A DNA stretch of 64,000 nucleotides from an uncultured Bacillales bacterium (GTDB taxonomy: Bacteria > Bacillota_I > Bacilli_A > RF39 > UBA660). Of the stretch, positions 5,640 to 25,058 are shown piece after piece. Below the pieces are notes generated by a model, which saw only the letters and a program-made list of their open reading frames with translations, did no database searches and had not been told where the DNA came from. How positions within the stretch are numbered: position 1 is the stretch's first letter; each line of letters opens with the position of its first letter. A program made the translations under genes and the position numbers. The stretch lies in the NCBI GenBank assembly GCA_946536225.1, contig CAMNEE010000003.1, positions 25,533 through 89,532 of the forward strand, given 5' to 3'.

Positions 5640-6384
5640 AAACTGTATAAGCTTCAACTATAACTGCTTCAGCTTTATCATATTCTTTAGAAGAATTTAA
5701 TACTTTTACTTCTCCGGTTTCTTTAATACCATATGCAGATCCAAATTTAGCATCTACTATTTTAGAATTACTATCGTAAAATAAAGTAACAACAGATAAT
5801 CTAGTAATACTTTTACCAGTTTGGTTATTTACAATATAAGTAATTTGATTATCATTAATTGTATAATCTTTGTTTAAACCAACTTCTTCACTTAATAAAG
5901 ACTTATAAATAGTCTTCTTATGATTAATTTTATAGTCATACTTATCATATACACCTATTTCAGATTTATTAACAATAAACATTGTTTTTTCACCAGTTCC
6001 AACAGCATATATTACATAATCAAATGTATTAGCTAATTCACCACTTGCATAAGTATTAAAACTTAAAAATAAATCATTATTACCAGATAAATCATTATCA
6101 ACATCAATAATAAATAAATCACTTAACTCAGTTATATTAGAACTAACTTTACCAGTTTCCTTAGTAGTTTTAGTTTCTACTACTTCAGTAGTTTTATCTT
6201 CATCTTCTTCATAGTAATTAGCTTGTTTAAGCATATTATTCATACTTATACCAAGAATTACAATTGTTACTATTAAAACAATAGTTAAAACTATAGCAAT
6301 TTTAAAATTCTTTCCTTTAGTTTCAGTATAATCATTCATCTGTGGATTAATTACAGGTTTATTATCTTCATTCATATATTCCAC
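5638..6384 (-). CDS. Membrane-anchored hypothetical protein
   Basis: Single N-terminal TM 'IAIVLTIVLIVTIVILGI'; no recognisable catalytic motif. Confidence 0.4.
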   Translation of the reverse strand: MEYMNEDNKPVINPQMNDYTETKGKNFKIAIVLTIVLIVTIVILGISMNNMLKQANYYEEDEDKTTEVVETKTTKETGKVSSNITELSDLFIIDVDNDLSGNNDLFLSFNTYASGELANTFDYVIYAVGTGEKTMFIVNKSEIGVYDKYDYKINHKKTIYKSLLSEEVGLNKDYTINDNQITYIVNNQTGKSITRLSVVTLFYDSNSKIVDAKFGSAYGIKETGEVKVLNSSKEYDKAEAVIVEAYTV

Positions 6385-6461
6385 CTCTTATATCTATAAT
6401 AATATTTTAAAAGAAAAATATAAAGAAAATAACCTGTTTATTTACACAAAAAAAGATTATG

Positions 6462-7439
6462 CTATTTTAAGCATAACCTCTTAACATCATCTAAATTTTG
6501 AGTTGTATATTTATAAGTTGTTTCATCAAGCTCTTCTCTAGCAAAGCCTAACAAATCAAAACATCTTTGCGCTGTTTCATTAGATTTTTTAATCTTACAA
6601 TATAAATAATTCATATCACAAAGAGAAAGTAAACCAATTAATCCTTCAAGAAGAAATCCTTGTTCTTTATAGTTTTGATATATTTTATAATCTATTTCAC
6701 CATAGGCTTTAATCTTAATATAACCAATGAAACTATTATTTTCTTTTAATCTAAGTTCATAACATATAGTTGCGAAGTCTGTATTCATCTTTTGATACAT
6801 TAATAATCTATCAGTAGTTACACAATCAGTAAAATTATCTATGTTAAAGTTTTCAAGACAGGAAACCATTCTATCATCAAAGTTAAAACCAACATCTAAC
6901 TTTTGATTTAAAATATCATGATAATCATCATCTTTTGCAAGTTCATCAATTAATTCAGCAAGTCTCATAGTTCTATCATAATTTGCCTTGCATAAATTAA
7001 ATTTTTTACATTGAATATCTAAGTAAGCAGCTGCACCTTCAGTACCAAATTGTTTACTTCTTGCATGGCAATCAACAACTTGTTCAGTTGCTTGATCACT
7101 GTTCATATCATTAGGATCATCAAAATAACCCCAGTGATGGTCATTATTTTGTTGATGTAAATGTGTAGCCTTCTTAACCTCTGGTGAAGGTTCATAATGT
7201 ATATTAGATAAATCATCAATACTATCTACAATAGAAGCCAAAGCTAAAAACTCTTGTACATTATTCAATTTAGATAAATCGTGTGTTTGACATCTACAAA
7301 TAAGCGATGTTGAATCCGCACCTCTTTGAAGTTTTTTAAGTTCGGTTGCTAAATATAACCCACTTCTTTGAACACATTCCCTATGTATTAATGTATCAAT
7401 TAATACATCAGTTAGTTTTTTTGGTTCTATTTTTCTCAT
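6462..7439 (-). CDS. Hypothetical protein with possible C-terminal GNAT-like acetyltransferase fold
   Basis: C-terminal 'QGFLLEGLIGLL...RCFDLLGF' resembles GNAT motifs A/B. Local GC is higher than the surroundings. Confidence 0.3.
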   Translation of the reverse strand: MRKIEPKKLTDVLIDTLIHRECVQRSGLYLATELKKLQRGADSTSLICRCQTHDLSKLNNVQEFLALASIVDSIDDLSNIHYEPSPEVKKATHLHQQNNDHHWGYFDDPNDMNSDQATEQVVDCHARSKQFGTEGAAAYLDIQCKKFNLCKANYDRTMRLAELIDELAKDDDYHDILNQKLDVGFNFDDRMVSCLENFNIDNFTDCVTTDRLLMYQKMNTDFATICYELRLKENNSFIGYIKIKAYGEIDYKIYQNYKEQGFLLEGLIGLLSLCDMNYLYCKIKKSNETAQRCFDLLGFAREELDETTYKYTTQNLDDVKRLCLK

Positions 7440-7566
7440 GATTTAATACCTTTCCATCGACTTTTTAGTCTATTATACACTAGAAAAATATAATATCAAC
7501 AAAAAACCAATTCCCTTATTTATTCTTAAACTTCCATATACTTACAAGTATACCACAAATAATCGT

Positions 7567-8460
7567 CTATATTTCTATTAATTCATATTGAGTAGAACCT
7601 AAGCCAAGTTTTTCAGCATAAGGAAGTATTTCTCTTCCTAAACGTGTATCAATTCTTTCTTGTAACTCCTTAGCCCCAGGATCTTTAGATGCAAATACCA
7701 TATCAACAAATGCTTGATCATTTGCAACTGGATCAAGTGAACCAACTATTCCAAGATCAGCCATAACTGGTTCTCCTTGTTTGGAATCACAATCACAATC
7801 TACCGATAAAGCATTCATAACAGTAATATATATAATTGGTTTATTATTTCTTTCACAATATTCATGAACTGCAGTTGCAGCTTCAGCCATCGACTCAATA
7901 AAATCAATTTGTTCATGTTTATCTACCCAGCACTCATCAGGATTTTCAGTATGACCACATGAATGAATATATGCTTTACCATTACGTGATGCAAATCCAA
8001 TTGATTGATTCTTTAGATTAGCACCAAATCCTCCCATGGCATGTCCTTTGCCATGAGCAAGATTTATGAATGAATCATACTTTTTAAAGCCTTCTCCAAG
8101 TAAATCGTACTTTAAGTGCTTTGCACCAACTGGAGCAGGTATTCTAAATTCACCTAATCCATCAATAATTTCAACACCCTTACCCATCTTAGTAAAGCCA
8201 TGTTCTTCAGCAACACTCATATGTTCCGTAGCCTCATTACGACTTCCTGGATATGCAGTATTGCATTCAATTATTGTCCCATTTAATCTATCAACTAGAG
8301 GTTTAATAATCTCCGATTTTAAGTAACCTTTTGCCCCTTTTTCACCAGTTGAAACTTTTATACCTACGTTTCCTGGTAATTTAACTCCAAGTGCTTCATA
8401 AACTTTCATAAGTCCTCGAGCACTGATGTCTTTTGTAAAATATACTTTTGAATTTTTCAT
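7567..8460 (-). CDS. DUF362-domain protein (putative Fe-S/ferredoxin-associated)
   Basis: Characteristic N-terminus 'MKNSKVYFTKDISARGL...' and length around 300 aa. Confidence 0.45.
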   Translation of the reverse strand: MKNSKVYFTKDISARGLMKVYEALGVKLPGNVGIKVSTGEKGAKGYLKSEIIKPLVDRLNGTIIECNTAYPGSRNEATEHMSVAEEHGFTKMGKGVEIIDGLGEFRIPAPVGAKHLKYDLLGEGFKKYDSFINLAHGKGHAMGGFGANLKNQSIGFASRNGKAYIHSCGHTENPDECWVDKHEQIDFIESMAEAATAVHEYCERNNKPIIYITVMNALSVDCDCDSKQGEPVMADLGIVGSLDPVANDQAFVDMVFASKDPGAKELQERIDTRLGREILPYAEKLGLGSTQYELIEI

Positions 8461-8550
8461 AAAATTACCTCCTCATATTTTACAAGACAAGTATAGCACA
8501 TAAAAAGAAGACTTACAAAAGTCCTCTTAAACTAACGTTTTTACGGTGAT

Positions 8551-10731
8551 TTAAAGTACATCTTCAACTCTAACAGCATTAACACCTATTTCATATAACT
8601 CATCAATATTATTCTTAACTATTCTATCTTTTCCATAAATAATAGTTAGGTTATCTCTTCTTAAACATCTAAATTTACTACCAAATTTATCTTTTAAGTA
8701 ATACGTATTCTTTGAGTCATACTTACCATTAAAGATGTCATATTTAATAACCATCGCTTCAGGTAAAGTATCAACAATTACTTCTACATTTGGATGTTTT
8801 CCGTATCTTTCTTCGTATGAATTTATTAAATCCTTTATTTGATAATCATTCATTTCTAAAGATAAACATACTCTTTTAACTCCAAGAGAATGAAGAAGTG
8901 CAACAGAATATGAATTTGTAACATTTAAAGACCAATCTGTTGCTATATCTTTAAACTTATATTTATAAACGCTTCCAAGTTCAGAGGCCATTATTAAGTT
9001 CCCTTTTCTTTCACTTAAGTGTTCCATGACTCTAGGATTTTTATAACGAATCCAATAATCATCAAAAGATTTGTTATAAGGAATAATTACTTCGTTATAA
9101 TGACTTCCCATAGAAATATTATATTTTTCAGTATTATCTAATAATAATATCTTCCAATTTGTCTTATCAAACTTAGGTAATTCGATATTATATTGTCGTT
9201 TAACGATATTATTAACACTTGCAACTCGAATTTTATCTAAATTATCAAGAGCATCTCTTCTTAAATCATTTATAGTTTTAATTGGTATAAATATATTATC
9301 ATCACTTACGATATCTAAAGACTTAATATTGTAAATTGTATTGCCTGTTTTAAGTAATTGTTTTTCTATATCTTCTTTTGTAGTTGGTCTATTAACACTT
9401 TTATCAACTATATAATCAGAATTCATAGAAATATCATTTATACCATCATTAACACTTATAGAAAGTTTTTCTCCTAGAAGTGCTTTAAACTTAACATCTA
9501 CATTTATTTTTCTATTATTTGCTTTTATTAAAGCATCTAAGTTTTTTAATTGTTCATAATCGGTAGTTTTTAATACTTCAGAACCTACTTCTACTTCTTC
9601 AGGAGAAAGCAAAGTAATTACTTCATTCTTCTTTGCACTTCTAACTTTCTCATTATTTTGAAACATTTGTTGAATAATCATACCAACGTCTTCAAATCCA
9701 CGTTTAACAAAACGTATTCCATCATTTAGATTAACTCCGTCTGTTAATCTTATCTTTACTCTATTCTTTTTAACATCGATTACATTACCTATCTTAACAC
9801 CCATATGATTTGGTCTAAATGTATTCATAAACTTATCATTTGGGGTATTAAATAAGAAACCTTTTGTATAATTTCTATTAAATATCTTCTTAAGCTCGTA
9901 TATTTCATCTTCACTTATATCAACTTTTCCAGTTTCAATATAAGAATCTACTGCTTTTCTATAAAGAGAAGTAACTAAATATACATACTCAGGTCTTTTC
10001 ATTCTACCTTCTATTTTTAAAGAATCAATACCTAGATCAATAAGTTTACCAACATCTTCCAAAGTACAAAGATCTCTTGTAGATAAAAGATAATTATCTT
10101 CACTTATCTTTATATCATTACAGTATAACTCATAAGGTTGTCTACAACTTTGAGCACATGTTCCTCGGTTACCACTTCTGCCACCTATTAAAGAACTCAT
10201 TAAACATTGTCCTGAGTAAGATATACATAAAGCCCCATGAACAAATATTTCTAACTCAATATTAGTGTTTTCTCTTATCTTTTTAACTAGTTCAATTGGA
10301 GTTTCACGAGCAAGAACTACACGTGATGCACCTAATTCTTCAACAAGTTTAGTACTTTCAACGTTATGAATATGCATTTGAGTAGAAATATGTATTTCAA
10401 GATTTGGGAAAGTTTTTCTAATTAAATCAAACATTCCAATATCTTGTACAATAACTGCATCTACATTATTCTTATGTAAAAACTCAATATAATCCATGAA
10501 CTTTTCAACTTCAAAGTCATAAACTAAAGTATTAGTAGTAACATATACTTTAACTCCATATTTATGAGCATAATTAATAGCAAATACTAATTCTTCATCA
10601 CTAAAATTATCAGCAAACGCTCTAGCACCAAATAATTTACCAGCTAAATAAACAGCATCGCATCCACCTTCAATAGCAGCATATAAAGAAGCCATTCTTC
10701 CAACAGGTGCAAGTATTTCGGGTTTCTTCAC
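8551..10731 (-). CDS. Peptidase U32 family protein (collagenase-like, long form)
   Basis: N-terminal 'PEILAPVGRMASLYAAIEGGCDAVYLAGKLFGARAFADNF' is typical of U32 peptidases; 726 aa. Confidence 0.7.
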   Translation of the reverse strand: MKKPEILAPVGRMASLYAAIEGGCDAVYLAGKLFGARAFADNFSDEELVFAINYAHKYGVKVYVTTNTLVYDFEVEKFMDYIEFLHKNNVDAVIVQDIGMFDLIRKTFPNLEIHISTQMHIHNVESTKLVEELGASRVVLARETPIELVKKIRENTNIELEIFVHGALCISYSGQCLMSSLIGGRSGNRGTCAQSCRQPYELYCNDIKISEDNYLLSTRDLCTLEDVGKLIDLGIDSLKIEGRMKRPEYVYLVTSLYRKAVDSYIETGKVDISEDEIYELKKIFNRNYTKGFLFNTPNDKFMNTFRPNHMGVKIGNVIDVKKNRVKIRLTDGVNLNDGIRFVKRGFEDVGMIIQQMFQNNEKVRSAKKNEVITLLSPEEVEVGSEVLKTTDYEQLKNLDALIKANNRKINVDVKFKALLGEKLSISVNDGINDISMNSDYIVDKSVNRPTTKEDIEKQLLKTGNTIYNIKSLDIVSDDNIFIPIKTINDLRRDALDNLDKIRVASVNNIVKRQYNIELPKFDKTNWKILLLDNTEKYNISMGSHYNEVIIPYNKSFDDYWIRYKNPRVMEHLSERKGNLIMASELGSVYKYKFKDIATDWSLNVTNSYSVALLHSLGVKRVCLSLEMNDYQIKDLINSYEERYGKHPNVEVIVDTLPEAMVIKYDIFNGKYDSKNTYYLKDKFGSKFRCLRRDNLTIIYGKDRIVKNNIDELYEIGVNAVRVEDVL

Positions 10732-12631: not shown

Positions 12632-13669
12632 TTATTTCTTACCAATAAACAAATGTTTAAAAGTAGATAATATTAATTCTTTAGAAGCACTATCTAACTC
12701 TTTATAACTATTAAGAAGCTTTCTTAAATCAGCAAGCTTAATTTTAGTTAAATGATATGTATGAGTAATATTATTAGCTTTAAAGAACTCATCCAAAATA
12801 CTTATAGCCTTATCTAACTGTGGTCTACTTAAAGAGTTAATATTTTCTTCCATCTTATCTTTAAAATCTAAAGTTTTACTAGATACATCACATCTTAAAA
12901 AGAAACTACCATACGTATGCCAATTAACAATATAATGTTTATAAAAACCAACACCATTTGCTTGTACGTATCTATATTTATCATTATTCAAAATAACACC
13001 AATCATACTACCATCAGGTAAGAATGTAGTTGTTTTCTTACTTACCTCTAAAAACCTTTCAGTTTCGTACTCATCATTTCTAAATCCAGGTCCATCGAAG
13101 TTATATATTTTTCTTATTCTTTTAAAGATATGATCATCTGCAAGATAAGCAGAACTAAGTGCAAGATTACCACCCTTTGAGTGTCCTCCTATATAGATAT
13201 TCCTATCCCCTTTTTTTATAGTATCTCTTAAGTAGTTTATTCCATAGCTTTGAGTTAAAGTAGGAAAAGTAGTTATTAGTTTCAAATTTTCCAACCAACC
13301 CATGATAGAAGTATTAGTACCTTCATATATAACAAGAGTATTACTTCCATATCTTAATGTATAAGCACCAAATTGTAACTTATCATCATCTATTTTTACA
13401 AAGTCATATACTTTAATATCTTTATATCTTTTTACACTTCTTACAGCATCCATTAGTTCTAAGGCCATAGGTGTCATAGCACCTTCAAAACTACTTGCAT
13501 CAAAACTTTTAACAATTTCACCAAATTTTTCAATTGTAATTCCATTTTGAATATTTACATATGGTAAATATACAAGCATAGAAAAAATAGCCATATCAAG
13601 TTCATTAAGTTTAACTTTTGAGAAACTAAGGTTACCATAATACTTTAAGTATTCAAAGTAGTTTTGCAT
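12632..13669 (-). CDS. Alpha/beta-hydrolase (lipase-like, DUF2974/class-3-lipase-like) with a helical C-terminal extension of about 100 aa
   Basis: Nucleophile elbow 'GGHSKGGNLA'. C-terminal about 100 aa predicted helical. Last gene of the T7SS-like gene string. Confidence 0.5.
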   Translation of the reverse strand: MQNYFEYLKYYGNLSFSKVKLNELDMAIFSMLVYLPYVNIQNGITIEKFGEIVKSFDASSFEGAMTPMALELMDAVRSVKRYKDIKVYDFVKIDDDKLQFGAYTLRYGSNTLVIYEGTNTSIMGWLENLKLITTFPTLTQSYGINYLRDTIKKGDRNIYIGGHSKGGNLALSSAYLADDHIFKRIRKIYNFDGPGFRNDEYETERFLEVSKKTTTFLPDGSMIGVILNNDKYRYVQANGVGFYKHYIVNWHTYGSFFLRCDVSSKTLDFKDKMEENINSLSRPQLDKAISILDEFFKANNITHTYHLTKIKLADLRKLLNSYKELDSASKELILSTFKHLFIGKK

Positions 13670-13732
13670 ATATAATCACCTACTATAATGTTAACAAAAA
13701 AAAACAAGAGTATAAATAACTCTTGTCATATT

Positions 13733-14029
13733 TTACAAGCCATTTCTAGCTTTTAATGATGCTTCTTTTAAACGTCTAATACGTCTAATTTCATTTGAAC
13801 CATGATTTCTGTAATTTAAGTCATTATGATATAATGCATCACTTATCTTTCTAAGTGTACGAATCATATCCTGAATATCTTCTTTAAGTGCTCTAACTTC
13901 GCTTACTCTACTAAATGTGCTAGGGCAATAAAGATTTGTACTTCTAGCTTGTTGAAGAGAATCTCTAGTATCTATAATACTACTTCTAGTCCCATTATAA
14001 ATACCTTCATTAACAATTTTTACTTTCAT
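13733..14029 (-). CDS. Small helical hypothetical protein (T7SS-associated)
   Basis: 98 aa; start overlaps the upstream gene stop by 4 nt (ATGA coupling). Confidence 0.4.
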   Translation of the reverse strand: MKVKIVNEGIYNGTRSSIIDTRDSLQQARSTNLYCPSTFSRVSEVRALKEDIQDMIRTLRKISDALYHNDLNYRNHGSNEIRRIRRLKEASLKARNGL

Positions 14030-14325
14030 ATGTTATCGTATTCCCTTTCATTTTTATTAGCAAGGTCTTCTAAAGAATCAGCATAATCAACTAATTCATC
14101 ACCAATTGCTCTTAAGCCTTCTCCAAATTTAACATAATCTCTTTTTTCATATGAAACACGGTCTCTATATTTAGGATATTGTTTACCTTTCCAAACACCG
14201 TTTATATCAAGAGTAGTTAATATCTCAAAGAATTTATCAATTGACTTATTATAATCATTTGCAAAATCAATGAATTTTTTTCCTTCATCTCTTAGCATTT
14301 GTGTATCACATTCAAAATCAGCCAT
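14026..14325 (-). CDS. WXG100-like small protein (candidate T7SS substrate)
   Basis: 99 aa, central 'GVWKGKQ' W-x-G motif; context. Confidence 0.4.
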   Translation of the reverse strand: MADFECDTQMLRDEGKKFIDFANDYNKSIDKFFEILTTLDINGVWKGKQYPKYRDRVSYEKRDYVKFGEGLRAIGDELVDYADSLEDLANKNEREYDNI

Positions 14326-14358
14326 CTACATCATCCTTTACTATTTGAAAAAAACGTC

Positions 14359-14730
14359 TTAGCGCATGCTTTGACGTCTTAATCTTTCCATTCTTTCTAA
14401 TCGTTCTTGTTCTCTAGCTTGACGTTCCTCTTCTTCTCTTCGTTCGATTTCACGTATCTCAGCTTTATTAGACTCGATTTCACTATCAATAGCAGGTATT
14501 AAACTAGATAAAATATTATCTCTTTTAGCTAAAATCCTTTTAGCTAACTTTTCAGTTTCATAATAACCTGCAACTGAATTATTATTAAGGGTGTAATTCT
14601 TATCTAGGTTAGTCATAATTTTATGTGCGTCATTATTTGCTTTATAAAGTCTTTCCGCAACTACTAATAAATTAGTACGTAATCTTTCTAAATCTCTATT
14701 TTCCGCCATAAGCGATGACTTTGATGCCAT
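14359..14730 (-). CDS. Small coiled-coil protein (T7SS-associated)
   Basis: 123 aa, R/E-rich heptad-like C-terminus. Confidence 0.4.
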   Translation of the reverse strand: MASKSSLMAENRDLERLRTNLLVVAERLYKANNDAHKIMTNLDKNYTLNNNSVAGYYETEKLAKRILAKRDNILSSLIPAIDSEIESNKAEIREIERREEEERQAREQERLERMERLRRQSMR

Positions 14731-14766
14731 AGATTTACCTCCTTATTCTTAATGGTTATTAAACTA

Positions 14767-15234
14767 TTAGTCTACTCTAATAGCGTTAGCTTCTTGTTCA
14801 AGAGCTTGAGAAGCTTCATTAATATTTTGAGCGTTTTGACGATCTCCTTCGTTCATAGCTCCTAATGCTGTTTCAGCATCTTTAATAAAGTTTCTATAAG
14901 TAGTTACATATGCTTCAAGTAATTTTTGAGCATTTGCTAAATATCCGCCTAAAGCAATTTCAGCTTCACCTTTAATTGCATCATCTCTTTTAGCTAATTC
15001 ATTGAATTTTGCTAAGTCTGCAGTTGCATCTGTAATTAATTTTTCAACAGCTACTTTAATGTCACCCCAGTTATTTGCGTTGATACCGATGAAACCACCA
15101 GAATAAATTGAACCAATTTTAGTTACTGCAGCGTCAAATATACCTTGAGTTTGAGCAAAAATACCTTGGATAGTGTTATCCCAAGCACTTTTTAAGCCTG
15201 CTCCTATATTTCCTAATCCAGCTCTAATTCCCAT
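14767..15234 (-). CDS. Gly-rich N-terminus helical protein (candidate T7SS substrate/partner)
   Basis: 155 aa, predicted all-helical, no TM. Confidence 0.4.
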   Translation of the reverse strand: MGIRAGLGNIGAGLKSAWDNTIQGIFAQTQGIFDAAVTKIGSIYSGGFIGINANNWGDIKVAVEKLITDATADLAKFNELAKRDDAIKGEAEIALGGYLANAQKLLEAYVTTYRNFIKDAETALGAMNEGDRQNAQNINEASQALEQEANAIRVD

Positions 15235-15250
15235 ATTAATCTATCTCCTT

Positions 15251-15571
15251 CTACCAGTTTTTAATTTGTTGAGCTAAAGCATCATCATATTCTTCAATGT
15301 TGCTACCAGCGTTATTTAATTGATCTTGAATTTGTTTTCCAGCTTCTTCAAGAGTTTTACACATAGTTTCAGTGTCATCTGTTAATTTTTGTTTAAATGC
15401 CTCAGCAGAAGCACCAACCCATACTGAGTCAACTGTAGTTCTAACATCGTTTGCATCACTTCTTAAAGTAGCGCATGCAGGAACTACACATTGAGTATTT
15501 ACTTCAGTAATAAGAGCTTGCATTCCGTTAACATCATATCCAGAAGTAGCTCCACTAATATTTAATGTCAT
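15251..15571 (-). CDS. WXG100 family protein (EsxA-like)
   Basis: 106 aa; central 'SVWVGASAEAF' WXG motif around position 50; adjacent to essC and yukD. Confidence 0.55.
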   Translation of the reverse strand: MTLNISGATSGYDVNGMQALITEVNTQCVVPACATLRSDANDVRTTVDSVWVGASAEAFKQKLTDDTETMCKTLEEAGKQIQDQLNNAGSNIEEYDDALAQQIKNW

Positions 15572-15582
15572 AAAAATTCCTC

Positions 15583-16026
15583 CTAATTTTCCACATTAAT
15601 TTTCTTGGCTTGTAACTCATGTTCAGCAGCAAGATCATTAAAGTAATTAGCTTCGAAAGATAATAAATCAACCGTGCCGTTCTTAACTTTCATCAAGTCA
15701 GATGTGAAAGTACCAAGGTTATCTCTTAATAATTCAAAGTTTTTTCTATAGCTAGAAAACTTTGCAACAAATTCGTCAGATTGATTACATTTAAAATAAT
15801 CATTCATGTTGTAAAAAATCATATCCATAGAATTTAAATCACTAGTGATATCATCAATAAGATTACCTAAATCATTAACAGTACTATCAATTGAGTTCTC
15901 GTTAATCTCAGCATTTACCGAAGTATCTAATCGCATCAGTATCTTCCTTCCTACATCGTTACTAGCATGAGTAATAGTCTTCCTATACTCTAAAATCATT
16001 ATATAAAAAAAATACCAATATGACAA
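15583..16026 (-). CDS. Small helical protein (T7SS-associated); true start probably internal Met, about 115 aa
   Basis: Located between the yukD-like and WXG100 genes. Confidence 0.35.
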   Translation of the reverse strand: MSYWYFFYIMILEYRKTITHASNDVGRKILMRLDTSVNAEINENSIDSTVNDLGNLIDDITSDLNSMDMIFYNMNDYFKCNQSDEFVAKFSSYRKNFELLRDNLGTFTSDLMKVKNGTVDLLSFEANYFNDLAAEHELQAKKINVEN

Positions 16027-16086
16027 ACTAAAATACGTCCTTTACGTAAAAAAAAGAAACAATTTAAACACTGTTTCTTTTTCGTT

Positions 16087-16341
16087 TTAAAACAATACTA
16101 ATTGTGTTCCATTTTTGATAGTTGTATTTCTTACATACGCACCATTATCGTATATTTCTCCAGTACGTCTATTACATAATCTGAAATTATCTCTTATAGG
16201 AAAATCTCCAAATTCAAGTTCCTTAATTGCTTGATTAAATATTGTTATTACAAAATCTACATGTTTATTAATAGGAACATAGAATTCAAATTTTTCTTCA
16301 ATCTCAGGAACATATAATTCTACTAAAATTTTATAATCCAT
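16087..16341 (-). CDS. YukD/EsaB-like ubiquitin-fold T7SS protein
   Basis: 84 aa, immediately downstream of and 4 nt from essC; '...KNGTQLVLF' C-terminus is typical of YukD. Confidence 0.55.
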   Translation of the reverse strand: MDYKILVELYVPEIEEKFEFYVPINKHVDFVITIFNQAIKELEFGDFPIRDNFRLCNRRTGEIYDNGAYVRNTTIKNGTQLVLF

Positions 16342-16344
16342 ATG

Positions 16345-19300
16345 CTACTCCTTATCCATAACAGACTTAATAAGTGTATACTTACCATCTTCAATAACGA
16401 AAGCTTCACCTTCAAAGTTAAGTTTTCTATCTTCCATATCAACAGTATTAACACCAAATAAATTTTGATTTTCTAAACCATTACCTAACCAAATACCAGA
16501 TGTTAAGTTAATATCTTTAAACCATGGCTCTGGTCTAAGTCTCTTAAGATTTTCATATGAATCAACTAGAATAACACTTGATTTATTAGCACTCTTAAGT
16601 GCTTCAAAGTATTCAAGCAATTTTTCATTACCTGTTTGAGATAAACTAACTTTTGCTCTTCCAATACCATAGATAAATGTTATTCCATGATCTTGTTGAA
16701 TAGTTCTAGTTTTTAAGTCATTTAGTAATGCCATAACTGTAGCATCATACTTATCATTATAGTAATTCATATCAACAGTATTACCAGCATAATTTCCAGT
16801 AAAGTCTAGTATTCTAACCTTTACTCCAGAAACTTTTGCTACTGTATCAACTAAACCGTATATAGATGTTATATTAGTTTGTAAATCATTAGTACATATT
16901 GCCATTAATTTATCTTTAACAATATTAAATGTTTTAATATTTTTTTCGTGGAAATCATAACCAACAGGTAGAGCATCTATAGTAGTTATATAACTTCCAA
17001 GTTCATTAGATGAAATATCATCTGGAATCTTAGGAAGTGATTTAGCTCTAACTTTATAATATGTTGAAAAGTTTTCAGCATTACTTCTAACAAGTTGATT
17101 AATCTTTTCTCTATCAGTAATAAATGCAGTTTGGAATTCACACCATTCTTCATCTTTATTAATAATACAAAGACCACGTCCAAATTCGTTAGCAGGAATT
17201 AACTTCTTAGGAACAGCATCAACAATAGTTCTATATTTAGATTCGTCAGACTGATGTAGAATAATTCTATATTGGAAGTATCCTTGTATCTTAGCTCTTA
17301 CTGCTTGATATCCAGTTGTAGATACCAAGAACGTAATACCAACCTTCGGAGCATCTCTAAACATTTGCTCTATGAATGGAACAATCTTAGGTAAGTTTTC
17401 ACTGAAGATATCAAAAGCACATATAGTAACAACCCATCTAGGTAAGAAATTACCAGATTCTTTAATATAACTATCATAGTTACCATTATAGTCAGCAAAT
17501 AATTCCTTACGTCTATCCATCTCGTCTAGAACCATTTCAAGAAGAGCTGGAATATTTTCAAGATTATCTTGGAACATTACTTCACCTACATGAGGATATT
17601 TAGCAAACATTCTTAGTGTTTCAGCACCATAATCGATAATATAATAATTTACTTCTTCAGGTGTATGCTCAATCATACTTGACCAAATAATCGTGGCAAG
17701 TAGATTTTCTTTACCAGACCCACCTTCACCATAAATAACAACGTTTTCACCTAAATCGATAGATAATAAACCTTGCTCTTGGAAAATTGGTCTATCATAC
17801 ATACCAATACAAGTATTTAAATTATATTTAGTAGGTTTCCAATTATATTTCTTCTTAACATCATCAAGTTTGATATTAGGATCAATATTTGGAAGCCATA
17901 ATTGCTTACCAACAACAGTTTCTTCTTTAGATATATCTGAAATATACTTAACTATATTTAATAATTCTTCACCATTATCTGCTTCTGGTGCTTTTTCACT
18001 AAATGTATTTTCATCATAACTATTAACAACATTACCAAGTGTATCAATATAACTTAAACTTTGATCAACTTTTTTCTTAATAATATCACTTGGATGATAT
18101 TTAGCACCCGACCAAGCAGATTGTCCTAATTGATAAAATTCATTATAACCTACTTGTAAATAGAAGGCACCAGTTGTCTTTAATGCTGCCGCATCACTAG
18201 TTTTAATCATATCTTTTGAATCTGATTGATCTTGAACTCTTAAACATACGTGGAATCTTGAGTTTGACCAAATTTGGTCATTTACAACACCACTTGGTTT
18301 TTGAGTTGCAAGTATTAAGTGAACACCAAGTGAACGACCAATACGTGCAGTTGATATTAATTGATCAAGAAAATCAGGCTCTTGAGATTTTAACTCAGCA
18401 AACTCATCGGAAATTATAAATAAATGAGAAACAGGTTCAGTTAATAAACCTTTCCTATAGTATTTTTGATACTTATAAATATTAATACTAGATTCATGAA
18501 GTTTTTCTCTTGCTTCATTAAATAATCTTTGTCTTCTCTTTAACTCTGCCTCAATTGAAGTAAGTGCTCTATTAATTGCAGACTTATCAAGGTTTGTAAT
18601 AGTACCAGCTAAATGTGGTAACTTAATACCCATTTCAGAGTTTTCAAATGCAAGTGCAAGTCCACCACCTTTGTAGTCGATAAGTACAAATTGAACTTCA
18701 TCTGGGTGGAAATTAACAGCAAGCGAAAGAATATATGTAATAATCCATTCTGATTTACCTGAACCAGTAGTACCAGCTACTAATCCATGTGGACCCCATC
18801 CTTTTTCATGAGCATCCATCATAAATAGTTCACCTTCTTGGTTAACACCAACAGGAACTGATAATGTATTAACAGGATTATTAGTTTTCCATCTTTCAAG
18901 AGAATTTAATTGTTCTACTCTACCTACATTAAACATTTCAAGGAATGAAACTGAACTAGGTAGTTCATACTTAGCTTTTTCCTTTTGCATTGGTACATTA
19001 GCAAGTACTTGAGCACATCCATACATATCAACGCTCTTATTTAATTCAGGAATAAACTCTTTTTGAGAATCTTTTGTTAAATTAGTTTCAAATAAACCTG
19101 ATTTTTCAGGATCAATATTCAAGAATGTAGAACATTGTTCAGGTAAGTTTGATAATCTATTGTTTCTATAAATAATAGATACACCAAAGTTTAAATTAGT
19201 ACTCATTGCTTTTTTAATCAAACTTGAGTTTCTTGCAAGTTCTAAATCATCAACAAATATTAGATAATATGGTTTATGACCTATAAAAGGTTTTTTTGTA

Positions 19301-20925
19301 ATCAATTCATCTGTTTTATCGTTTGATTTACTATCATCTTCATTTGCTTCTGAAATAATTCTAGCTTCTAAATCTTTTTCAATTGTAGAACTAATAGTTG
19401 ATAGTTCTTCAGGACATGTAGCAAAGTATCTAATTGTCTTCAAGTTATCCCATGTATGAGGAGTAACTTTTAAATATTCCCATAAGAATTCATTTTCTTT
19501 GTTTGTAATAACAACAAATTTTAAATCTAAATAACTATGGAAAGTCATTAATTGTAAGAAAATACTATCAATAAAATATTTAGTTAAAACATTATTACCA
19601 ACAACTGCAGAAATACGTTTTTCTGATAAGTTGATGTCCATAGGAGCATCATCTATCCACATAGCATCTTCTTTTAAATCATCTACTTTATCTTTTAAAT
19701 CAAATTCTTCTAATTGGAACTCATCTTTGTTTGGTTCTTCAAGTTCTATTTGAGTCTTAACTCTTCCTGTTCCAATTCTAACAGTTAAGAAGTCATCATC
19801 ACCAATATTCTTGCCCCATAAGTTTCTATTATGGTTATAAATAATGTTTTGACATTCTTCTAACGAAACATTATTTTCAATTAATATTTGTTTTTGTAAA
19901 GACTTAATTTCATCAGCTTTTTTACGTTTACCATCCAAATACTCTAGATATTTTCTTCTAGTTCTTAAATCATTTCTAGTCTTTTGTCTTTTTTGATATC
20001 TTTTAGTCATAACCGGCCAGAAGAATGAAGATAAAAGCATAACTATAACAGTAACAAATGTTGGAAGTAAATCTCTAAAGGATTTAGTACCAGCAGTATA
20101 TCCTTCAATAGCTGTTAAAAGAGTAACACCTGACGTTAATATCATAGTCATTCTAGGACCATATGTTAGTAATGCAGGAGCATTCTCATCTCCTTCATTT
20201 CCACCAGGAGGAGGTGAGATTATTAATTTTTCAGGTTCAATAATACTTCTAAATCTAGGAGATTTATAAAAATAGTCTTCCTTAGAATACATTGGAGTAT
20301 CTTCAAGTATAGTTGGTTGATATGTAATATTAGGTTTAGGAAGTGATACTTCTTTTAAAGAACAAGTAACAAGTCCATTAGGATTATTAACTAAGAAAAT
20401 ATTATTTATAACAATAACTCTTAATCCATATAAGAAGATATAATCACCATGGAATACATTTTTCTTAGTAAACTTCTTATTCATGATGAATGCGCCTGCA
20501 CCACCATTATTTTCAGCTACCCAGTGGTTCTTAACCTTAGTTAATGTAACATGAGTATCTTTAAGTTTATTAAATCTATATTGAATATCCGCATTTCCAT
20601 TACCAATGGTAATTTTTTCTTTATCTGTTTGATAGCACTTAGTAGAACCATCATACATAGGTCCTACTACAACTTCAGTAACTTCATTAGTAATTAATTT
20701 TTTTATTGTGAAATAATCGTAATCTTTTAAAACTTTTTCATTTACTTGTCCATCAGGAAAAGATAGTTCAATATCAGGGTTGCTTTTAACTACCCAAGAA
20801 CCTTGAACAGCCTCAATGTTACACAAAGTTTTCCCATCGAAGTCATTTATTTGATAGATACCCGATATCTTAACAGGTAGTTTTAATTTTCGCATTTTAT
20901 CGTCATGTATTATGAAAACTAACAT
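16345..20925 (-). CDS. essC: Type VII secretion FtsK/SpoIIIE-family ATPase EssC/YukB (FHA-like N-terminus, TM segments, three ATPase domains)
   Basis: 1526 aa. P-loops 'GTTGSGKSE' and 'GEGGSGKEN'. TM pair around residues 250-310. N-terminal FHA-like region. Confidence 0.8.
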   Translation of the reverse strand: MLVFIIHDDKMRKLKLPVKISGIYQINDFDGKTLCNIEAVQGSWVVKSNPDIELSFPDGQVNEKVLKDYDYFTIKKLITNEVTEVVVGPMYDGSTKCYQTDKEKITIGNGNADIQYRFNKLKDTHVTLTKVKNHWVAENNGGAGAFIMNKKFTKKNVFHGDYIFLYGLRVIVINNIFLVNNPNGLVTCSLKEVSLPKPNITYQPTILEDTPMYSKEDYFYKSPRFRSIIEPEKLIISPPPGGNEGDENAPALLTYGPRMTMILTSGVTLLTAIEGYTAGTKSFRDLLPTFVTVIVMLLSSFFWPVMTKRYQKRQKTRNDLRTRRKYLEYLDGKRKKADEIKSLQKQILIENNVSLEECQNIIYNHNRNLWGKNIGDDDFLTVRIGTGRVKTQIELEEPNKDEFQLEEFDLKDKVDDLKEDAMWIDDAPMDINLSEKRISAVVGNNVLTKYFIDSIFLQLMTFHSYLDLKFVVITNKENEFLWEYLKVTPHTWDNLKTIRYFATCPEELSTISSTIEKDLEARIISEANEDDSKSNDKTDELITKKPFIGHKPYYLIFVDDLELARNSSLIKKAMSTNLNFGVSIIYRNNRLSNLPEQCSTFLNIDPEKSGLFETNLTKDSQKEFIPELNKSVDMYGCAQVLANVPMQKEKAKYELPSSVSFLEMFNVGRVEQLNSLERWKTNNPVNTLSVPVGVNQEGELFMMDAHEKGWGPHGLVAGTTGSGKSEWIITYILSLAVNFHPDEVQFVLIDYKGGGLALAFENSEMGIKLPHLAGTITNLDKSAINRALTSIEAELKRRQRLFNEAREKLHESSINIYKYQKYYRKGLLTEPVSHLFIISDEFAELKSQEPDFLDQLISTARIGRSLGVHLILATQKPSGVVNDQIWSNSRFHVCLRVQDQSDSKDMIKTSDAAALKTTGAFYLQVGYNEFYQLGQSAWSGAKYHPSDIIKKKVDQSLSYIDTLGNVVNSYDENTFSEKAPEADNGEELLNIVKYISDISKEETVVGKQLWLPNIDPNIKLDDVKKKYNWKPTKYNLNTCIGMYDRPIFQEQGLLSIDLGENVVIYGEGGSGKENLLATIIWSSMIEHTPEEVNYYIIDYGAETLRMFAKYPHVGEVMFQDNLENIPALLEMVLDEMDRRKELFADYNGNYDSYIKESGNFLPRWVVTICAFDIFSENLPKIVPFIEQMFRDAPKVGITFLVSTTGYQAVRAKIQGYFQYRIILHQSDESKYRTIVDAVPKKLIPANEFGRGLCIINKDEEWCEFQTAFITDREKINQLVRSNAENFSTYYKVRAKSLPKIPDDISSNELGSYITTIDALPVGYDFHEKNIKTFNIVKDKLMAICTNDLQTNITSIYGLVDTVAKVSGVKVRILDFTGNYAGNTVDMNYYNDKYDATVMALLNDLKTRTIQQDHGITFIYGIGRAKVSLSQTGNEKLLEYFEALKSANKSSVILVDSYENLKRLRPEPWFKDINLTSGIWLGNGLENQNLFGVNTVDMEDRKLNFEGEAFVIEDGKYTLIKSVMDKE

Positions 20926-21049
20926 ATTATCAACCCTTTATTATTTTTCATTAAAATTATAACAATAATACCTGTTTTATTCAATCTAATACGAATGTAA
21001 AATTAAACTATTTATATTTAGTTCTTAATTACTAATTGCTATAATAATA

Positions 21050-22642
21050 TTGGGTGATATTATGAAAATAAAAAACGACCATTTATATAGACAAATGGGT
21101 ATCGTATATTTCGATAATAAGAAATTCATGATGTTTAGAGATGCACATAGTAAGCTAGCATTTCTAGAAATGGATGAAAACAATAAGCTTCATTATCCAG
21201 AATTAAGAGATGTTATTGCTTTAGCAAATATCATGGCAGCTAAACCAAAAGGACTACAAGCAATAATCTTCGATAATAAAAATAGAAAAATTAAAAAATT
21301 CCATTTTATACCAAAAGTAAAAGTCGCAGGAATAGTAACTTTATTAACTGCCTCTATGCTTGTTGGATGTGGAAGGAAGATGCAGGAGGCACCAACTACT
21401 AGCGAACCAAGCGCTATGGAACAAGCATATCAAATGGCTATGCAAGGAGAATCTCCAAGTTTTTCATTTGATGAAGATGTTGATGTAAAACTTAACGAAG
21501 ATGGATCATTAGCTATTGAAGAAAGTGAAGAAGCAAATAATTTCACACCAGAAGATTCATATAACTGGGGACAAACTGAAGATGAAATTGCTGATAAATA
21601 TCTTCAAATGTTATCACCTGCAGATGATGAGTATGACTATAGATACGCAAACGATAACGTTGAGTCCGAAACTCTTAATTATATATATGCACGTGATTCT
21701 AAAGGATATGAAAGAATATTCCATGAAGGAAAACCTACACTTCAAACACTTTATAATACAATTGATGGAAACGCTAAGCTTTCTGCTGATCATAAAGCAT
21801 TCTTAAAAGATTATTGTAAAGAATGGTTAGAACGTTGGCCTGAATCTGATCTTTCAGTATTTAATTATAATTTAAAAACACTTGAAATAAGAGAATTAAG
21901 CACTCAAGAAATTCAAATGCAAACAATGTCTTCAGGAACTGTTGCATGTTACTTAAATCAAGAAAATATAATTTGTTTAAATAAAGACGCAAATTATAAA
22001 GATAAAACATCTAACGACTATGTAGTATTTATGCATGAACTTACTCATGCAACTAGAACTCTAAAAAATAAAGATGTATATGGAAAAGATATTTCAATAA
22101 GATTCTATGAAGACTTATCAATGGGTCTATATGAAGATGAAGCTCTAGATACTTACTTCTGTTATCAAATACAAGGTTTAAACAATAGAGCAATATATTA
22201 CACATATCAATCAAGTATCTTTAGACAATTCATGCCTTATCTAGATTATGATGGAGCAGATTACATGAATCATTCAGTAAATTACTTTATTGAAAAACTT
22301 CAAGAATACTTTGATAAAGTAGGAATTGAAACTCCAGCATATCATTTTATAAACTTACTTGATTCTCAAGCAAAACTTCACTATGACTCTCTTGCATCTC
22401 CTGATTATACAAACTTCAGTGAGTTATACGATGTATTATGCCAATTATATATAATTAATCATGTAACAGCAGATATGACTTATGAACAAACAGAAGCAGA
22501 ATTTGAAAAGTTCTATGAAGATATGACATTCAACTTTGAAAATCTACAAGACCCATATCCAAATATTACAAGAGACTCATACAAAGTTCATTGGGATCAA
22601 AGAATAAGTGAATTAGGTATTGAAAACGTTAAAACAAGATAA
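21050..22642 (+). CDS. Lipoprotein, unknown function
   Basis: Lipobox 'LVGCG' after a hydrophobic leader. Divergent from essC. Confidence 0.45.
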   Translation: MGDIMKIKNDHLYRQMGIVYFDNKKFMMFRDAHSKLAFLEMDENNKLHYPELRDVIALANIMAAKPKGLQAIIFDNKNRKIKKFHFIPKVKVAGIVTLLTASMLVGCGRKMQEAPTTSEPSAMEQAYQMAMQGESPSFSFDEDVDVKLNEDGSLAIEESEEANNFTPEDSYNWGQTEDEIADKYLQMLSPADDEYDYRYANDNVESETLNYIYARDSKGYERIFHEGKPTLQTLYNTIDGNAKLSADHKAFLKDYCKEWLERWPESDLSVFNYNLKTLEIRELSTQEIQMQTMSSGTVACYLNQENIICLNKDANYKDKTSNDYVVFMHELTHATRTLKNKDVYGKDISIRFYEDLSMGLYEDEALDTYFCYQIQGLNNRAIYYTYQSSIFRQFMPYLDYDGADYMNHSVNYFIEKLQEYFDKVGIETPAYHFINLLDSQAKLHYDSLASPDYTNFSELYDVLCQLYIINHVTADMTYEQTEAEFEKFYEDMTFNFENLQDPYPNITRDSYKVHWDQRISELGIENVKTR

Positions 22643-22661
22643 ATAGAAAGGTTATGATTAT

Positions 22662-23675
22662 ATGTTCTTACTTGAAGAAGATAAAACTATTTGGAATTTT
22701 CTAGTAAGTAAGTATTTTGAATTTGAAACTGTATTTAATGTTCTTTTTAAAATACTTATAGTTTATACAATTATTTATACAATTGTCTTCTTCATAAGCA
22801 TGTATAAATTTGCAAAGAAAGAACACCAACCTGTATATAAATATGTAATACCTTTTCTTAATTGGTGGTACTATTTTAAACTATGCAATATACCTCGTTG
22901 GATAGTATTAATTCCTGTTTTAAATATAATAGCTCAACTAGTATCTCCTGCTAAACTTGCATATGAATATAAATATTCAATGTCATTTGGTGTATTCGGT
23001 ATATTTATACCAATATATGCCATACCAGTAATAGCTTTTAGTAAAAACAAAAGTAGACGTAGACTAGAAAAATCAAAATCACTTCAAACAGTAAAATCTA
23101 TTAAGTTAATAGAAGAAAAACTAGAAAATGAAAAAGAAGAAGATTACGATAACTTTAATCTAAGAGCATTCACTAAAAGAAAAGAAAAAGAAGACAAAAA
23201 CAGAATAGAAGAAAAAATCAAAAAAATAGAAGAAGATGCTATTAAAGACGATTATGATGATATTCTATATGGCGATGACCTAAATGAAAAAAGCAAAGCC
23301 AAAATGGAAGTCAAAGAAATGATTCAAGAACAAGATATTGAAGAACTTGAAGCAACTGAAGAAAAGATGGAAGACGAAATCGTAGAATTAGACGATAAAG
23401 AAGAAGACTTAAAAGTTGCAATCAAGAAAAAAGAAGAAGATATCGAAAATAAAAGTACACTTGCAATTGAAGATAATGCTAATTATCAAGATTATGAATT
23501 TTTACGTAAAGATAACACAACTATTGCTTTTGGTGGTAAAAACGAAGTTAAGAAAAAAGCAAGAAACGTTACAGAAGAAAAAGCAGGTAGAAATAGATGT
23601 CCTAGATGTAATACTCCAATTGATAATACCATGGATATATGTCCAGGATGTGGAATGAATTTAAGAAAAAAATAA
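22662..23675 (+). CDS. Membrane protein with KE-rich coiled coil and C-terminal zinc ribbon
   Basis: Three or four N-terminal TM segments. 'CPRCNTPIDNTMDICPGCG' CxxC...CxxC at the C-terminus. Confidence 0.45.
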   Translation: MFLLEEDKTIWNFLVSKYFEFETVFNVLFKILIVYTIIYTIVFFISMYKFAKKEHQPVYKYVIPFLNWWYYFKLCNIPRWIVLIPVLNIIAQLVSPAKLAYEYKYSMSFGVFGIFIPIYAIPVIAFSKNKSRRRLEKSKSLQTVKSIKLIEEKLENEKEEDYDNFNLRAFTKRKEKEDKNRIEEKIKKIEEDAIKDDYDDILYGDDLNEKSKAKMEVKEMIQEQDIEELEATEEKMEDEIVELDDKEEDLKVAIKKKEEDIENKSTLAIEDNANYQDYEFLRKDNTTIAFGGKNEVKKKARNVTEEKAGRNRCPRCNTPIDNTMDICPGCGMNLRKK

Positions 23676-23714: not shown

Positions 23715-24173
23715 TTATTTAGACATAGGTTGTTTAGGAATAAGATTATCCATGCTATTTTGATTCATAATAGTTTTAACTTGTTCATATAATTCCATAT
23801 CTAATAAAGGAAGTCTTTTAGCCAAGTCTCTTACAACTGTCCAATAATCAACAGACATTACCTCAGATATATTAGCAATCGTGTATCCTTCTATAACTAG
23901 TTTAGCTTCATTAATAATTCTATTCCTTATTTCTTGATTCTCAACAGTTAAAGGTTTTCTAGAATCAATTACTTGTTGAACTAAATCAGATTTCTCAGGA
24001 TGTCTCTTTTTGTAACGTTGAATATAGTCTTGTACAGTTACATAAGACATAAACATACCTTGATTTGAAAAATACTTAGCAGTTGATCTAACAGAAGCAT
24101 CAGGATTCATTGTATAATACTCTCCTACTAAATTAATTCTTTCTTCTCTTTCTTCATCAGTTAATCTTGTCAT
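23715..24173 (-). CDS. Hypothetical small protein (possible HTH regulator)
   Basis: 152 aa, no clear motif. Confidence 0.3.
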   Translation of the reverse strand: MTRLTDEEREERINLVGEYYTMNPDASVRSTAKYFSNQGMFMSYVTVQDYIQRYKKRHPEKSDLVQQVIDSRKPLTVENQEIRNRIINEAKLVIEGYTIANISEVMSVDYWTVVRDLAKRLPLLDMELYEQVKTIMNQNSMDNLIPKQPMSK

Positions 24174-24299
24174 TTTTTCTAGCTCCTTTTTTTCTTAAAA
24201 GTCTTCCCCAAATGGTAACTCCTTGGCTGGTATTATAGCATAAAAAAGTATAATCGTTTAACAATTACACTTTTCTAATTATATTTACAAGATATTTTT

Positions 24300-25058
24300 T
24301 TATCTTCTAACAGCATGATGTTCTTCTTTCATATTAAATGAAGCACTATCAGCTGCCTTCTTTTGTTCTTTAAACCATTCCATGAATGCATCTCTGTCTT
24401 CAAGTAAATCATTATTTAATCCACTTAAATCCAACTCTGAATAACCATATGAAAGAGTATAATCATGTGGTCTTTCAATACTAACTTCTTCACCATCAAC
24501 AATTCTTCTATGAGAATCAAGAGCATTATGAATAGTATTAGTAATTGAAGTAGACATATTTTTTAATCTATCTTCTAGAATTGAAGGAGGACAGTTTTTT
24601 GCAATAATAACAAACTCATCTCCACCTTCTCTAACAACTAAGTCATATCTTCTAAATGCTGATTCAAGTCCTCTTGCAACAATTATAAGTGCATCGTCAC
24701 CTACATCATGACCATATGTGTCATTTATAGATTTAAAATGATCTAAATCTATAGCAATTACATAATATGTGTCAGCTTCTTCTTTTGTAGGATCATTTAA
24801 AGATTTAAACTCTTCTTTAAAATATGATTGTTCAGCTTTTCTATTATAAAGACCTGTCAAGGCATCACGTTTAGATGATTCATCTAGTTCTTTCATTTTC
24901 TCTTTTAAATCATCTAAAGTTTTATTCTTTTCTTCAATAAGTCCTAATAATTCTGATATCAATTGAAAAGATTCATCAGACTTATCCATATATTCTATTC
25001 TCTTTTTAACTTTTTCAAGAAAAAGAATTTCAGTATTCTTGTCCATACACAACACCAC
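24300..25058 (-). CDS. GGDEF-domain diguanylate cyclase with N-terminal coiled coil
   Basis: 'RDALTGLYNRKA' and 'REGGDEFVII' signatures. Confidence 0.7.
   Translation of the reverse strand: MVLCMDKNTEILFLEKVKKRIEYMDKSDESFQLISELLGLIEEKNKTLDDLKEKMKELDESSKRDALTGLYNRKAEQSYFKEEFKSLNDPTKEEADTYYVIAIDLDHFKSINDTYGHDVGDDALIIVARGLESAFRRYDLVVREGGDEFVIIAKNCPPSILEDRLKNMSTSITNTIHNALDSHRRIVDGEEVSIERPHDYTLSYGYSELDLSGLNNDLLEDRDAFMEWFKEQKKAADSASFNMKEEHHAVRR

Follow-up and report, generated by a model that had tools for sequence, protein, structure and literature searches.

A type VII secretion locus with two candidate membrane partners of EssC in place of EssB, EsaA, and EssA

We analyzed a type VII secretion system (T7SS) locus in a 64-kb stretch of DNA from an uncultured Bacillales bacterium (contig CAMNEE010000003.1, positions 25,533 to 89,532; we call this stretch the window, and coordinates refer to it). 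Ten genes at 13733-23675 encode the motor ATPase EssC, a ubiquitin-like protein, six small helical proteins, and two membrane proteins of 530 and 337 amino acids. We lean towards the view that these ten genes are the full module of a T7SS variant that has no prior description. We also slightly favor the idea that the two membrane proteins are structural partners of EssC, in place of EssB, EsaA, and EssA. That both are inherited together with this EssC lineage is a result from comparative genomics. The original prediction, which was made from the sequence of the window, had proposed either a reduced T7SS or unrecognized functional analogs among the genes divergent from essC. The locus does appear to be a genuine T7SS without EssB, EsaA, or EssA nearby, and the co-inheritance favors the analogs.

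The window has a G+C content of about 27%. Eight of the ten genes are on the minus strand and run from 20925 to 13733. The genes for the two membrane proteins are on the plus strand and diverge from essC, at 21050-22642 and 22662-23675. Identical copies of the EssC protein are found on 16 metagenome contigs; one of these is a 696-kb scaffold, and the label of its sample suggests sheep rumen.

EssC (1526 amino acids; 16345-20925, minus strand) scores 924 bits against the NCBI equivalog model for this protein (TIGR03928, with a cutoff of 778 bits), in agreement with the original prediction, whose genes were all present where it had placed them. The closest relative with a solved structure is Bacillus subtilis YukB, from the T7SSb core complex (PDB:9qks; 9e-121 over residues 205-944), and structures of EccC match as well (PDB profile search). 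EssC has an FHA-like N-terminus (roughly residues 1-215), a pair of membrane helices (roughly 250-307, including a hydrophobic helix at 285-307), and then FtsK-type ATPase domains, with two FtsK_SpoIIIE (PF01580) stretches in Pfam. The Walker A motif of the first ATPase domain (D1) is canonical (GTTGSGKS at 718), and that of D2 is degenerate (GEGGSGKE). A pattern search found no third Walker A. Of the features in the original prediction, the membrane pair is seen and the FHA-like N-terminus is likely; of the three predicted P-loops, a canonical Walker A was found in D1 alone. Searches of Pfam and of PDB sequence profiles gave no significant FHA match to the N-terminus of the window protein. 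Many full-length homologs, some of them 58-60% identical, do have precomputed matches to FHA (PF00498) and PF16697, and a pattern at around residues 100-175 of EssC resembles FHA (ITIG..(D)I.Y...H.TL...W..E...GD.IFLYGL). A homolog search found full-length relatives at 37-76% identity in at least 120 clusters; only a few bear a name, which is "MAG: type VII secretion protein EssC [Bacilli bacterium]".

The FtsK_SpoIIIE domains might also suggest that the 1526-amino-acid protein is a conjugative or DNA-translocating FtsK-like ATPase with no role in a T7SS, as the original prediction had considered. But the protein scores just 62 bits against FtsK (versus 924 bits for EssC), it has the multi-domain architecture of EssC, and it is encoded alongside ubiquitin-like and WXG100 genes. 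Also, the window contains no relaxase or type IV secretion genes. We consider this possibility to be effectively refuted.

The next gene begins 3 nt past the stop codon of essC (not 4 nt, as originally described) and encodes a protein of 84 amino acids, in the position of EsaB/YukD/TsxB (16087-16341, minus strand). It had no match in Pfam, NCBIfam, or the PDB sequence profiles. AlphaFold predicted a beta-grasp fold for it with a predicted local distance difference test (pLDDT) score of 92.6, using an alignment of 21 homologs. (All of our AlphaFold alignments were of database-derived sequences only.) Foldseek matched this model to ubiquitin-like folds, including the ubiquitin-like domain of EccD5 from the ESX-5 complex (E = 1.1e-5). 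The protein ends with LVLF and lacks Gly-Gly, and a homolog lies directly beside EssC in 85 of 89 related loci. This confidently predicted fold indicates a ubiquitin-like protein of the TsxB/EsaB type, which agrees with the YukD/EsaB-like assignment in the original prediction.

Two of the small proteins resemble WXG100 proteins, as had been predicted. One has 106 amino acids (15251-15571, minus strand), with a WVG motif at 51 that is kept in its orthologs, and scores 25.3 bits against PF06013, which is under the cutoff of 27.3 bits. The other has 99 amino acids (14026-14325, minus strand) and a WKG motif at 45, and its family profile matches WXG100 proteins of Oribacterium that are annotated by Pfam (about 1e-8). 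Thus, three general features of T7SS are present: an EssC-type ATPase, a WXG100-family protein, and a ubiquitin-like protein without Gly-Gly.

We then looked for the canonical membrane partners. EssB/YukC (PF10140, TIGR03926), EsaA, and EssA had no match among the ten proteins of the locus (Pfam and NCBIfam, with E values of up to 1) or among the other open reading frames in the window of at least 100 amino acids (Pfam). Precomputed Pfam matches to them were absent within 10 kb of essC, from the 8 kb past the window's left edge, and from the related loci that we examined. Nor does the window encode a membrane protein of the size of EsaA/YueB (800-1100 amino acids) near essC. These searches bear out the statement in the original prediction that the three partners are missing near essC. 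The absence of EssA is the weakest of the three because small diverged proteins are easily missed. We also scanned 82 membrane proteins of 300-1300 amino acids whose genes lie at most 7 kb from a related EssC gene in metagenome loci. Families that recurred among them were Ser/Thr kinases with PASTA domains, proteins with Ig-like domains, and housekeeping proteins; none of the 25 commonest families listed was YukC, EsaA, or EssA, which leaves room for one or two matches.

Because the three universal features are present and the three components specific to T7SSb (EssB, EsaA, and EssA) were not found where we could look, we consider the locus to be a T7SS variant and not a member of T7SSb. The label "type VIIb-like" in the original prediction is loose, as many T7SS variants lack these partners (PMC11217815).

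Alternatively, the locus could be part of an ordinary T7SSb with EssB, EsaA, and EssA encoded elsewhere in the genome and acting in trans, in which case the divergent genes would be irrelevant. EssC does pass the equivalog model for EssC of T7SSb. But besides the negative results in the window, in the 8 kb beyond it, and among the commonest families of neighboring membrane proteins, the nine loci with the 530-amino-acid family (described below) all lack genes for the three partners within 10 kb of essC. Variants without these proteins are common (PMC11217815). An in-trans arrangement therefore seems quite unlikely to us.

What the locus has instead is two divergent membrane proteins. The first (21050-22642, plus strand) is a single-pass protein of 530 amino acids, or of 526 amino acids if it starts at 21062, as the gene callers have it. 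An AlphaFold model from 30 sequences (pLDDT of 81 overall and over 90 in the ectodomain) divides it into a cytoplasmic alpha/beta domain (about 12-77), a membrane anchor with an LVGC lipobox (about 86-107), a disordered linker (105-175), and a globular ectodomain (176-525). The ectodomain contains HELTH followed by E364, and H329, E330, H333, and E364 are invariant in the 30 sequences; this HExxH...E pattern suggests a glutamate-zincin. Pfam gave sub-threshold matches to metallopeptidases (MPTase-PolyVal at 19.7 bits and DUF6782), and a search of PDB sequence profiles with the family found nothing significant. The original prediction had called this protein a lipoprotein. The lipobox is indeed there, but a conserved cytoplasmic domain of 85 amino acids precedes the hydrophobic segment and LVGC.

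The second protein (22662-23675, plus strand) is a multi-pass membrane protein of 337 amino acids. As had been predicted, a C-terminal zinc ribbon (CPRC...CPGC) follows its membrane helices. These number about three and are DUF5684-like (20-127); a long linker rich in Glu and Lys and an IAFGG motif come between them and the ribbon. In an alignment of six orthologs, IAFGG is conserved and CPxC...CPGC is invariant. The window protein scores 24.5 bits against DUF5684 (PF18936), which is below the cutoff of 27.4 bits, while a relative in another locus (L031; we number the related loci in this way) scores 42.7 bits and the orthologs carry precomputed DUF5684 matches. Zinc-ribbon families in Pfam match the window protein weakly. 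The literature that we searched does not mention DUF5684.

Neither membrane protein showed homology to EssB, EsaA, or EssA in Pfam, NCBIfam, the PDB profile search, or Foldseek, where no EssB/YukC or EsaA structure was among the top matches to the model of the 530-amino-acid protein. The original prediction had suggested comparing the divergent genes with EssB/YukC and EsaA/YueB, and no such relationship was detected. Therefore, we view the two proteins as candidate analogs and not as diverged orthologs.

One line of evidence that these proteins belong with EssC is their distribution. In an iterative profile search of 89 EssC loci, the 530-amino-acid family was found in just nine (the window, L012-L014, L010, and L001-L004). 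We had expected to find it across the wider EssC radiation; instead, it is confined to one clade, as these nine loci group together in a neighbor-joining tree of EssC. The 337-amino-acid family is present in seven of the nine (in L014, only its C-terminal part), as well as in L052 and, as a version with DUF5684 only, in L031. (For L003 and L004, the contigs end too soon to show whether it is present.) L012-L014, whose EssC proteins are 58-76% identical, have the same ten genes in the same order. In L010, both membrane genes are divergent from essC and their order is swapped. In L001-L004, with EssC at 42% identity, a homolog of the 530-amino-acid protein is encoded directly upstream of essC on the same strand; it is just 20% identical, and the homology includes the N-terminal domain. 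The homolog of the 337-amino-acid protein in L001 and L002 lies 5-6 kb off, at the edge of the module.

Could the neighborhood have been kept by descent only, with divergent genes that are unrelated to secretion? Several of the loci are from related uncultured Bacilli, and the window and L012 share synteny of spoIIID and argS. However, the flanks hold unrelated genes in L013 and L014 and are also wholly different in L010 and L001-L004, yet both genes are still found with essC, in varying order and orientation. This makes mere descent very improbable.

When we clustered the neighbors of the 89 EssC genes by BLAST, the only widespread families were EssC itself and the ubiquitin-like protein. The other families that recurred in one sub-clade proved to reflect synteny of housekeeping genes (for ribosomal proteins L13 and S9, TruA, and an ABC transporter). 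Across 80 metagenome loci, the accessory sets are highly diverse: some resemble the kinase, Ig-protein, or possibly phosphatase types of T7SS, and others are smaller than the window locus. These lineages commonly have clusters of just EssC, the ubiquitin-like protein, and WXG proteins, without EssB, EsaA, or EssA nearby.

The cytoplasmic domain of the 530-amino-acid protein, its most telling feature, is a second link to EssC. The protein as a whole has 38 relatives among 5.8 billion protein clusters. With the cytoplasmic domain alone as the query, there were 32 matches among 1.84 billion representative proteins, and all of them were at the N-terminus except for one spurious match to a repeat protein. 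The full-length matches have 466-575 amino acids, and 22 of 23 contain HExxH. Where the context is known, all ten copies with the domain adjoin essC. (Nine are from the loci above. The tenth, P0019, was placed with the EssC protein P0125 and the ubiquitin-like protein P0062 on one contig because their contig sizes are equal, at 17,292 bp.) In contrast, the copies without the domain (in L009, L011, L095, and L096) have no essC within 10 kb. The association between the domain and essC gives P = 0.001 (Fisher's test), but these loci are not phylogenetically independent and the test is not corrected for relatedness. The homologs without the domain start directly with a classic lipoprotein signal peptide, and most members of the family keep the lipobox. 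As the domain is confined to copies that are next to essC, surface zincin-like lipoproteins seem to have acquired a cytoplasmic extension in the EssC-linked lineage.

Several observations weigh against our reading of the two proteins. First, in a sister sub-branch of the EssC tree (L015, L019, and L030), neither protein is encoded within 10 kb of essC, so they are not indispensable to every relative. In L015 (467-1114, minus strand) and L030 (9278-9796, minus strand), the divergent position upstream of essC is taken by homologous small signal-anchored proteins of 215 and 172 amino acids, with no Pfam match. Second, Oribacterium sp. FC2011 (L009) has two paralogs without the cytoplasmic domain, which are encoded among pairs of WXG100 genes. 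The absences in the sister branch and these Oribacterium copies fit a role in processing or immunity, or another accessory role, as well as they fit a structural one. Third, the zincin assignment rests on the motif and on sub-threshold Pfam matches; a Foldseek search of PDB with the model gave nothing significant, with the minimal zincin selecase as the best match (E of about 1). A further caveat is that the DNA inspected for canonical partners is about 72 kb of a genome that is likely over 0.7 Mb.

Thus, another explanation is that the divergent genes are tied to the T7SS without being structural. The zincin-like protein would be a surface lipoprotein exported by Sec, whose task might be to process the secreted WXG100-like proteins, to alter the envelope, or to shield the producing cell, and the DUF5684 protein would serve as a regulator or as a membrane protein of the immunity type. 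Besides the sister branch and the Oribacterium copies, the conserved lipobox and the classic signal peptides of the domain-less copies support this idea, and the known immunity proteins for T7SS toxins include a lipoprotein (Til1) and a membrane protein (Til2) (PMC13560087). But a cytoplasmic domain that is exclusive to copies adjoining essC is hard to reconcile with a purely extracellular enzyme or immunity protein. Also, no toxin gene is conserved with the module, and immunity genes usually vary between strains, while both of these genes are kept down to 42% identity of EssC. We therefore think that an accessory role is a serious possibility but not a likely one, and we continue to favor the reading of the two proteins as structural partners.

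If they are structural partners, then the 530-amino-acid protein would be anchored in the membrane by a segment that leaves its N-terminus intracellular. Its 85-amino-acid domain would dock on the cytoplasmic face of the complex, onto the FHA-like region of EssC, the ubiquitin-like protein, or both, and would thereby stand in for the EssB/YukC pseudokinase of T7SSb. The zinc-peptidase-like ectodomain might act at the cell surface, either to process exported substrates or to stabilize the complex. A second membrane subunit would be the DUF5684/zinc-ribbon protein, whose ribbon would face the cytoplasm.

A parallel for the ectodomain would be MycP (mycosin) of the actinobacterial T7SSa, which is encoded by the secretion cluster and whose protease domain lies on the outer face of the membrane. 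This subtilisin-like serine protease is anchored at its C-terminus and is required for secretion in mycobacteria. By analogy, both proteins may place an anchored protease or protease-like domain outside the cell, and both are encoded within the cluster. However, the 530-amino-acid protein is zincin-like, has an N-terminal anchor and an additional cytoplasmic domain, and is not homologous to MycP. A more specific proposal is that the locus represents an eleventh T7SS architecture, with EssC, the ubiquitin-like protein, an EssC-docking domain that is fused to an active zinc protease needed for secretion, and a DUF5684 subunit. This proposal is tentative, and we would not bet on it. If the ectodomain does turn out to be active and needed for secretion, then protease-coupled export would recur in T7SS, with two independent origins, one of them that of MycP.

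The layout of the 530-amino-acid protein is also reminiscent of EssB/YukC, which is likewise encoded beside essC and has one membrane helix between an N-terminal domain in the cytoplasm and a C-terminal domain outside. The cytoplasmic domains differ, however (85 amino acids as compared to a pseudokinase of about 200), and we detected no similarity in sequence or fold. More broadly, the window locus resembles T7SSb (Ess of Staphylococcus aureus and Yuk of B. subtilis) in that its EssC-type ATPase is extended at the N-terminus and has two membrane helices, a gene for a small ubiquitin-like protein adjoins essC, and the cluster includes WXG100 genes. Unlike T7SSb, it has no nearby EssB/YukC, EsaA/YueB, or EssA, and keeps two unrelated membrane proteins in their place. 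YukB and YukC of B. subtilis are bridged by YukD (PMC12637312), whereas the ubiquitin-like protein of the window has no local YukC to bridge to.

A survey of RefSeq by Garrett, Higginson and Palmer in 2024 described eight further architectures, T7SSc to T7SSj, which keep a core of the ATPase TsxC, the WXG100 protein TsxA, and the ubiquitin-like protein TsxB, with the other parts swapped (PMC11217815). The window locus is similar in that it has a conserved core with lineage-specific accessories and lacks EssB, EsaA, and EssA, and T7SSg is similarly small. It is set apart by its accessory genes. Pfam searches of the window did not find the kinase TsxD, the PPM phosphatase TsxF, the vWA protein TscE, the EspG-like TsxG, the Ig-rich TsxI, the DUF6382-FHA protein TsxJ, the AAA+/TadZ-like TsfV, the DUF5050 propeller TsgL, or the LytR regulator, and these accessory domains were likewise unseen in the related loci that we examined. 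Metallopeptidases, zinc ribbons, and DUF5684 go unmentioned in the survey, and we found no T7SS core component of this kind in the literature that we searched. The EssC clade of the window is known mainly from rumen and gut metagenomes, while the survey covered RefSeq. Variation around a shared T7SS core has already been published (PMC11217815); the pair of candidate partners appears to be new.

Research on T7SS in Firmicutes rests on the EssA/EssB/EssC/EsaA model, and the window locus adds an architecture that is absent from the 2024 survey. It also provides two concrete candidates for partners of EssC, from uncultured rumen and gut Bacilli. The 85-amino-acid domain, as it is exclusive to proteins linked to essC, is a clean target for interaction tests.

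We return to the small helical proteins, which had been noted in the original prediction and whose six families are each kept across the window and L012-L014. The two WXG100-like proteins have been described. A protein of 117 amino acids (15583-15936, minus strand), with weak WXG100 matches, has orthologs of 115-118 amino acids in L012-L014, and its ortholog in L012 has a weak match to LXG in Pfam. Its reading frame can be extended back to 16026, which gives the 147 amino acids of the original prediction, but the gene callers and the homologs indicate that it is most likely the shorter gene. A helical protein of 155 amino acids (14767-15234, minus strand) has orthologs of exactly this length in L012-L014, and its profile has weak matches to the WXG100 proteins of Oribacterium. 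Orthologs in L012-L014 are also found for a helical protein of 123 amino acids whose C-terminal tail is both acidic and basic (14359-14730, minus strand) and for the 98-amino-acid helical protein that is encoded last in the operon (13733-14029, minus strand). The latter gene shares 4 nt (14026-14029) with the preceding gene for the 99-amino-acid protein, and this overlap suggests translational coupling. The remaining small families match the same Oribacterium WXG100 proteins, more weakly than the 99-amino-acid family does. Comparing the six profiles to each other gave weak links only; the best was between the 106- and 99-amino-acid families (28% probability). At least two of the six are of the WXG100 type, and these proteins are likely to be secreted substrates and their partners. 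The Oribacterium island (L009; JNJM01000001.1, 118569-139900) contains four tandem WXG100 pairs (99 and 104 amino acids), interleaved with TPR and choline-binding proteins.

Turning to regulatory signals, the intergenic region between essC and the divergent genes is 124 bp (20926-21049) and contains a promoter-like site at 20984-20956 on the minus strand (TTGAAT-17-TATAAT with TG upstream, by pattern scan). This is weak evidence because, in this AT-rich DNA, promoter-like matches are no more frequent than in shuffled sequence. Another match, TTGTCA-17-TATAAT (11/12 sigma-70-like; 15998-16026, minus strand), lies between the ubiquitin-like gene and the genes for the small proteins and overlaps the TTG start of the 147-amino-acid reading; it may be an internal promoter. 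Directly 3' of the last gene of the operon is a terminator-like hairpin with a T-run (13703-13727, minus strand), which is a consensus match from a pattern scan.

Between this terminator and argS is a gene for a Mbeg1-like lipase-type hydrolase of 345 amino acids (12632-13669, minus strand; PF11187 at 148 bits, with a GHSKG nucleophile motif). It is missing from L012, which is otherwise syntenic, and was not found in L013 or L014. We considered whether it could be a "reverse" lipase effector, but the lipase domain spans 79-291 and leaves just about 55 residues at the C-terminus. An effector role is doubtful because this is too short for an LXG-like targeting domain. In L080 and L081, larger proteins (441-544 amino acids) with an N-terminal Mbeg1/Lipase_3 domain are encoded downstream of EssC; these recall the "reverse" lipase toxins Tsl1 and Tsl2.

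On the other side of the module, a spoIIID homolog and a gene for a GGDEF protein adjoin it (23715-25058, minus strand), as they do in L012, and the spore gene YunB is near the module in L014. Because relatives carry spore genes nearby, the host lineage is probably spore-forming or descended from spore-formers.

Finally, some of the related loci have features of their own. A sub-clade of EssC that is encoded beside rplM-rpsI (L020, L022, L024, L026, L028, L045, and L070) has what seem to be even smaller loci: a 113-amino-acid membrane protein with WxG and a protein of about 240 amino acids that matches no family are encoded upstream of essC, and the ubiquitin-like gene is downstream, followed in several loci by one or two tiny open reading frames. 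In L001 (17672-18625, minus strand) and L002 (4377-5153, plus strand), the module includes a protein whose N-terminus is helical and which ends in a SleB-type cell-wall hydrolase domain (PF07486 at about 25 bits, just sub-threshold). It could be an effector, or a helper that opens the cell wall, like EssH of S. aureus (PMC13059805). In L033, two large proteins with DUF285 ("Mycoplasma protein") repeats are encoded directly upstream of a related essC (5474-9873, plus strand), which hints that part of the EssC radiation is in Mollicutes-like Bacilli.

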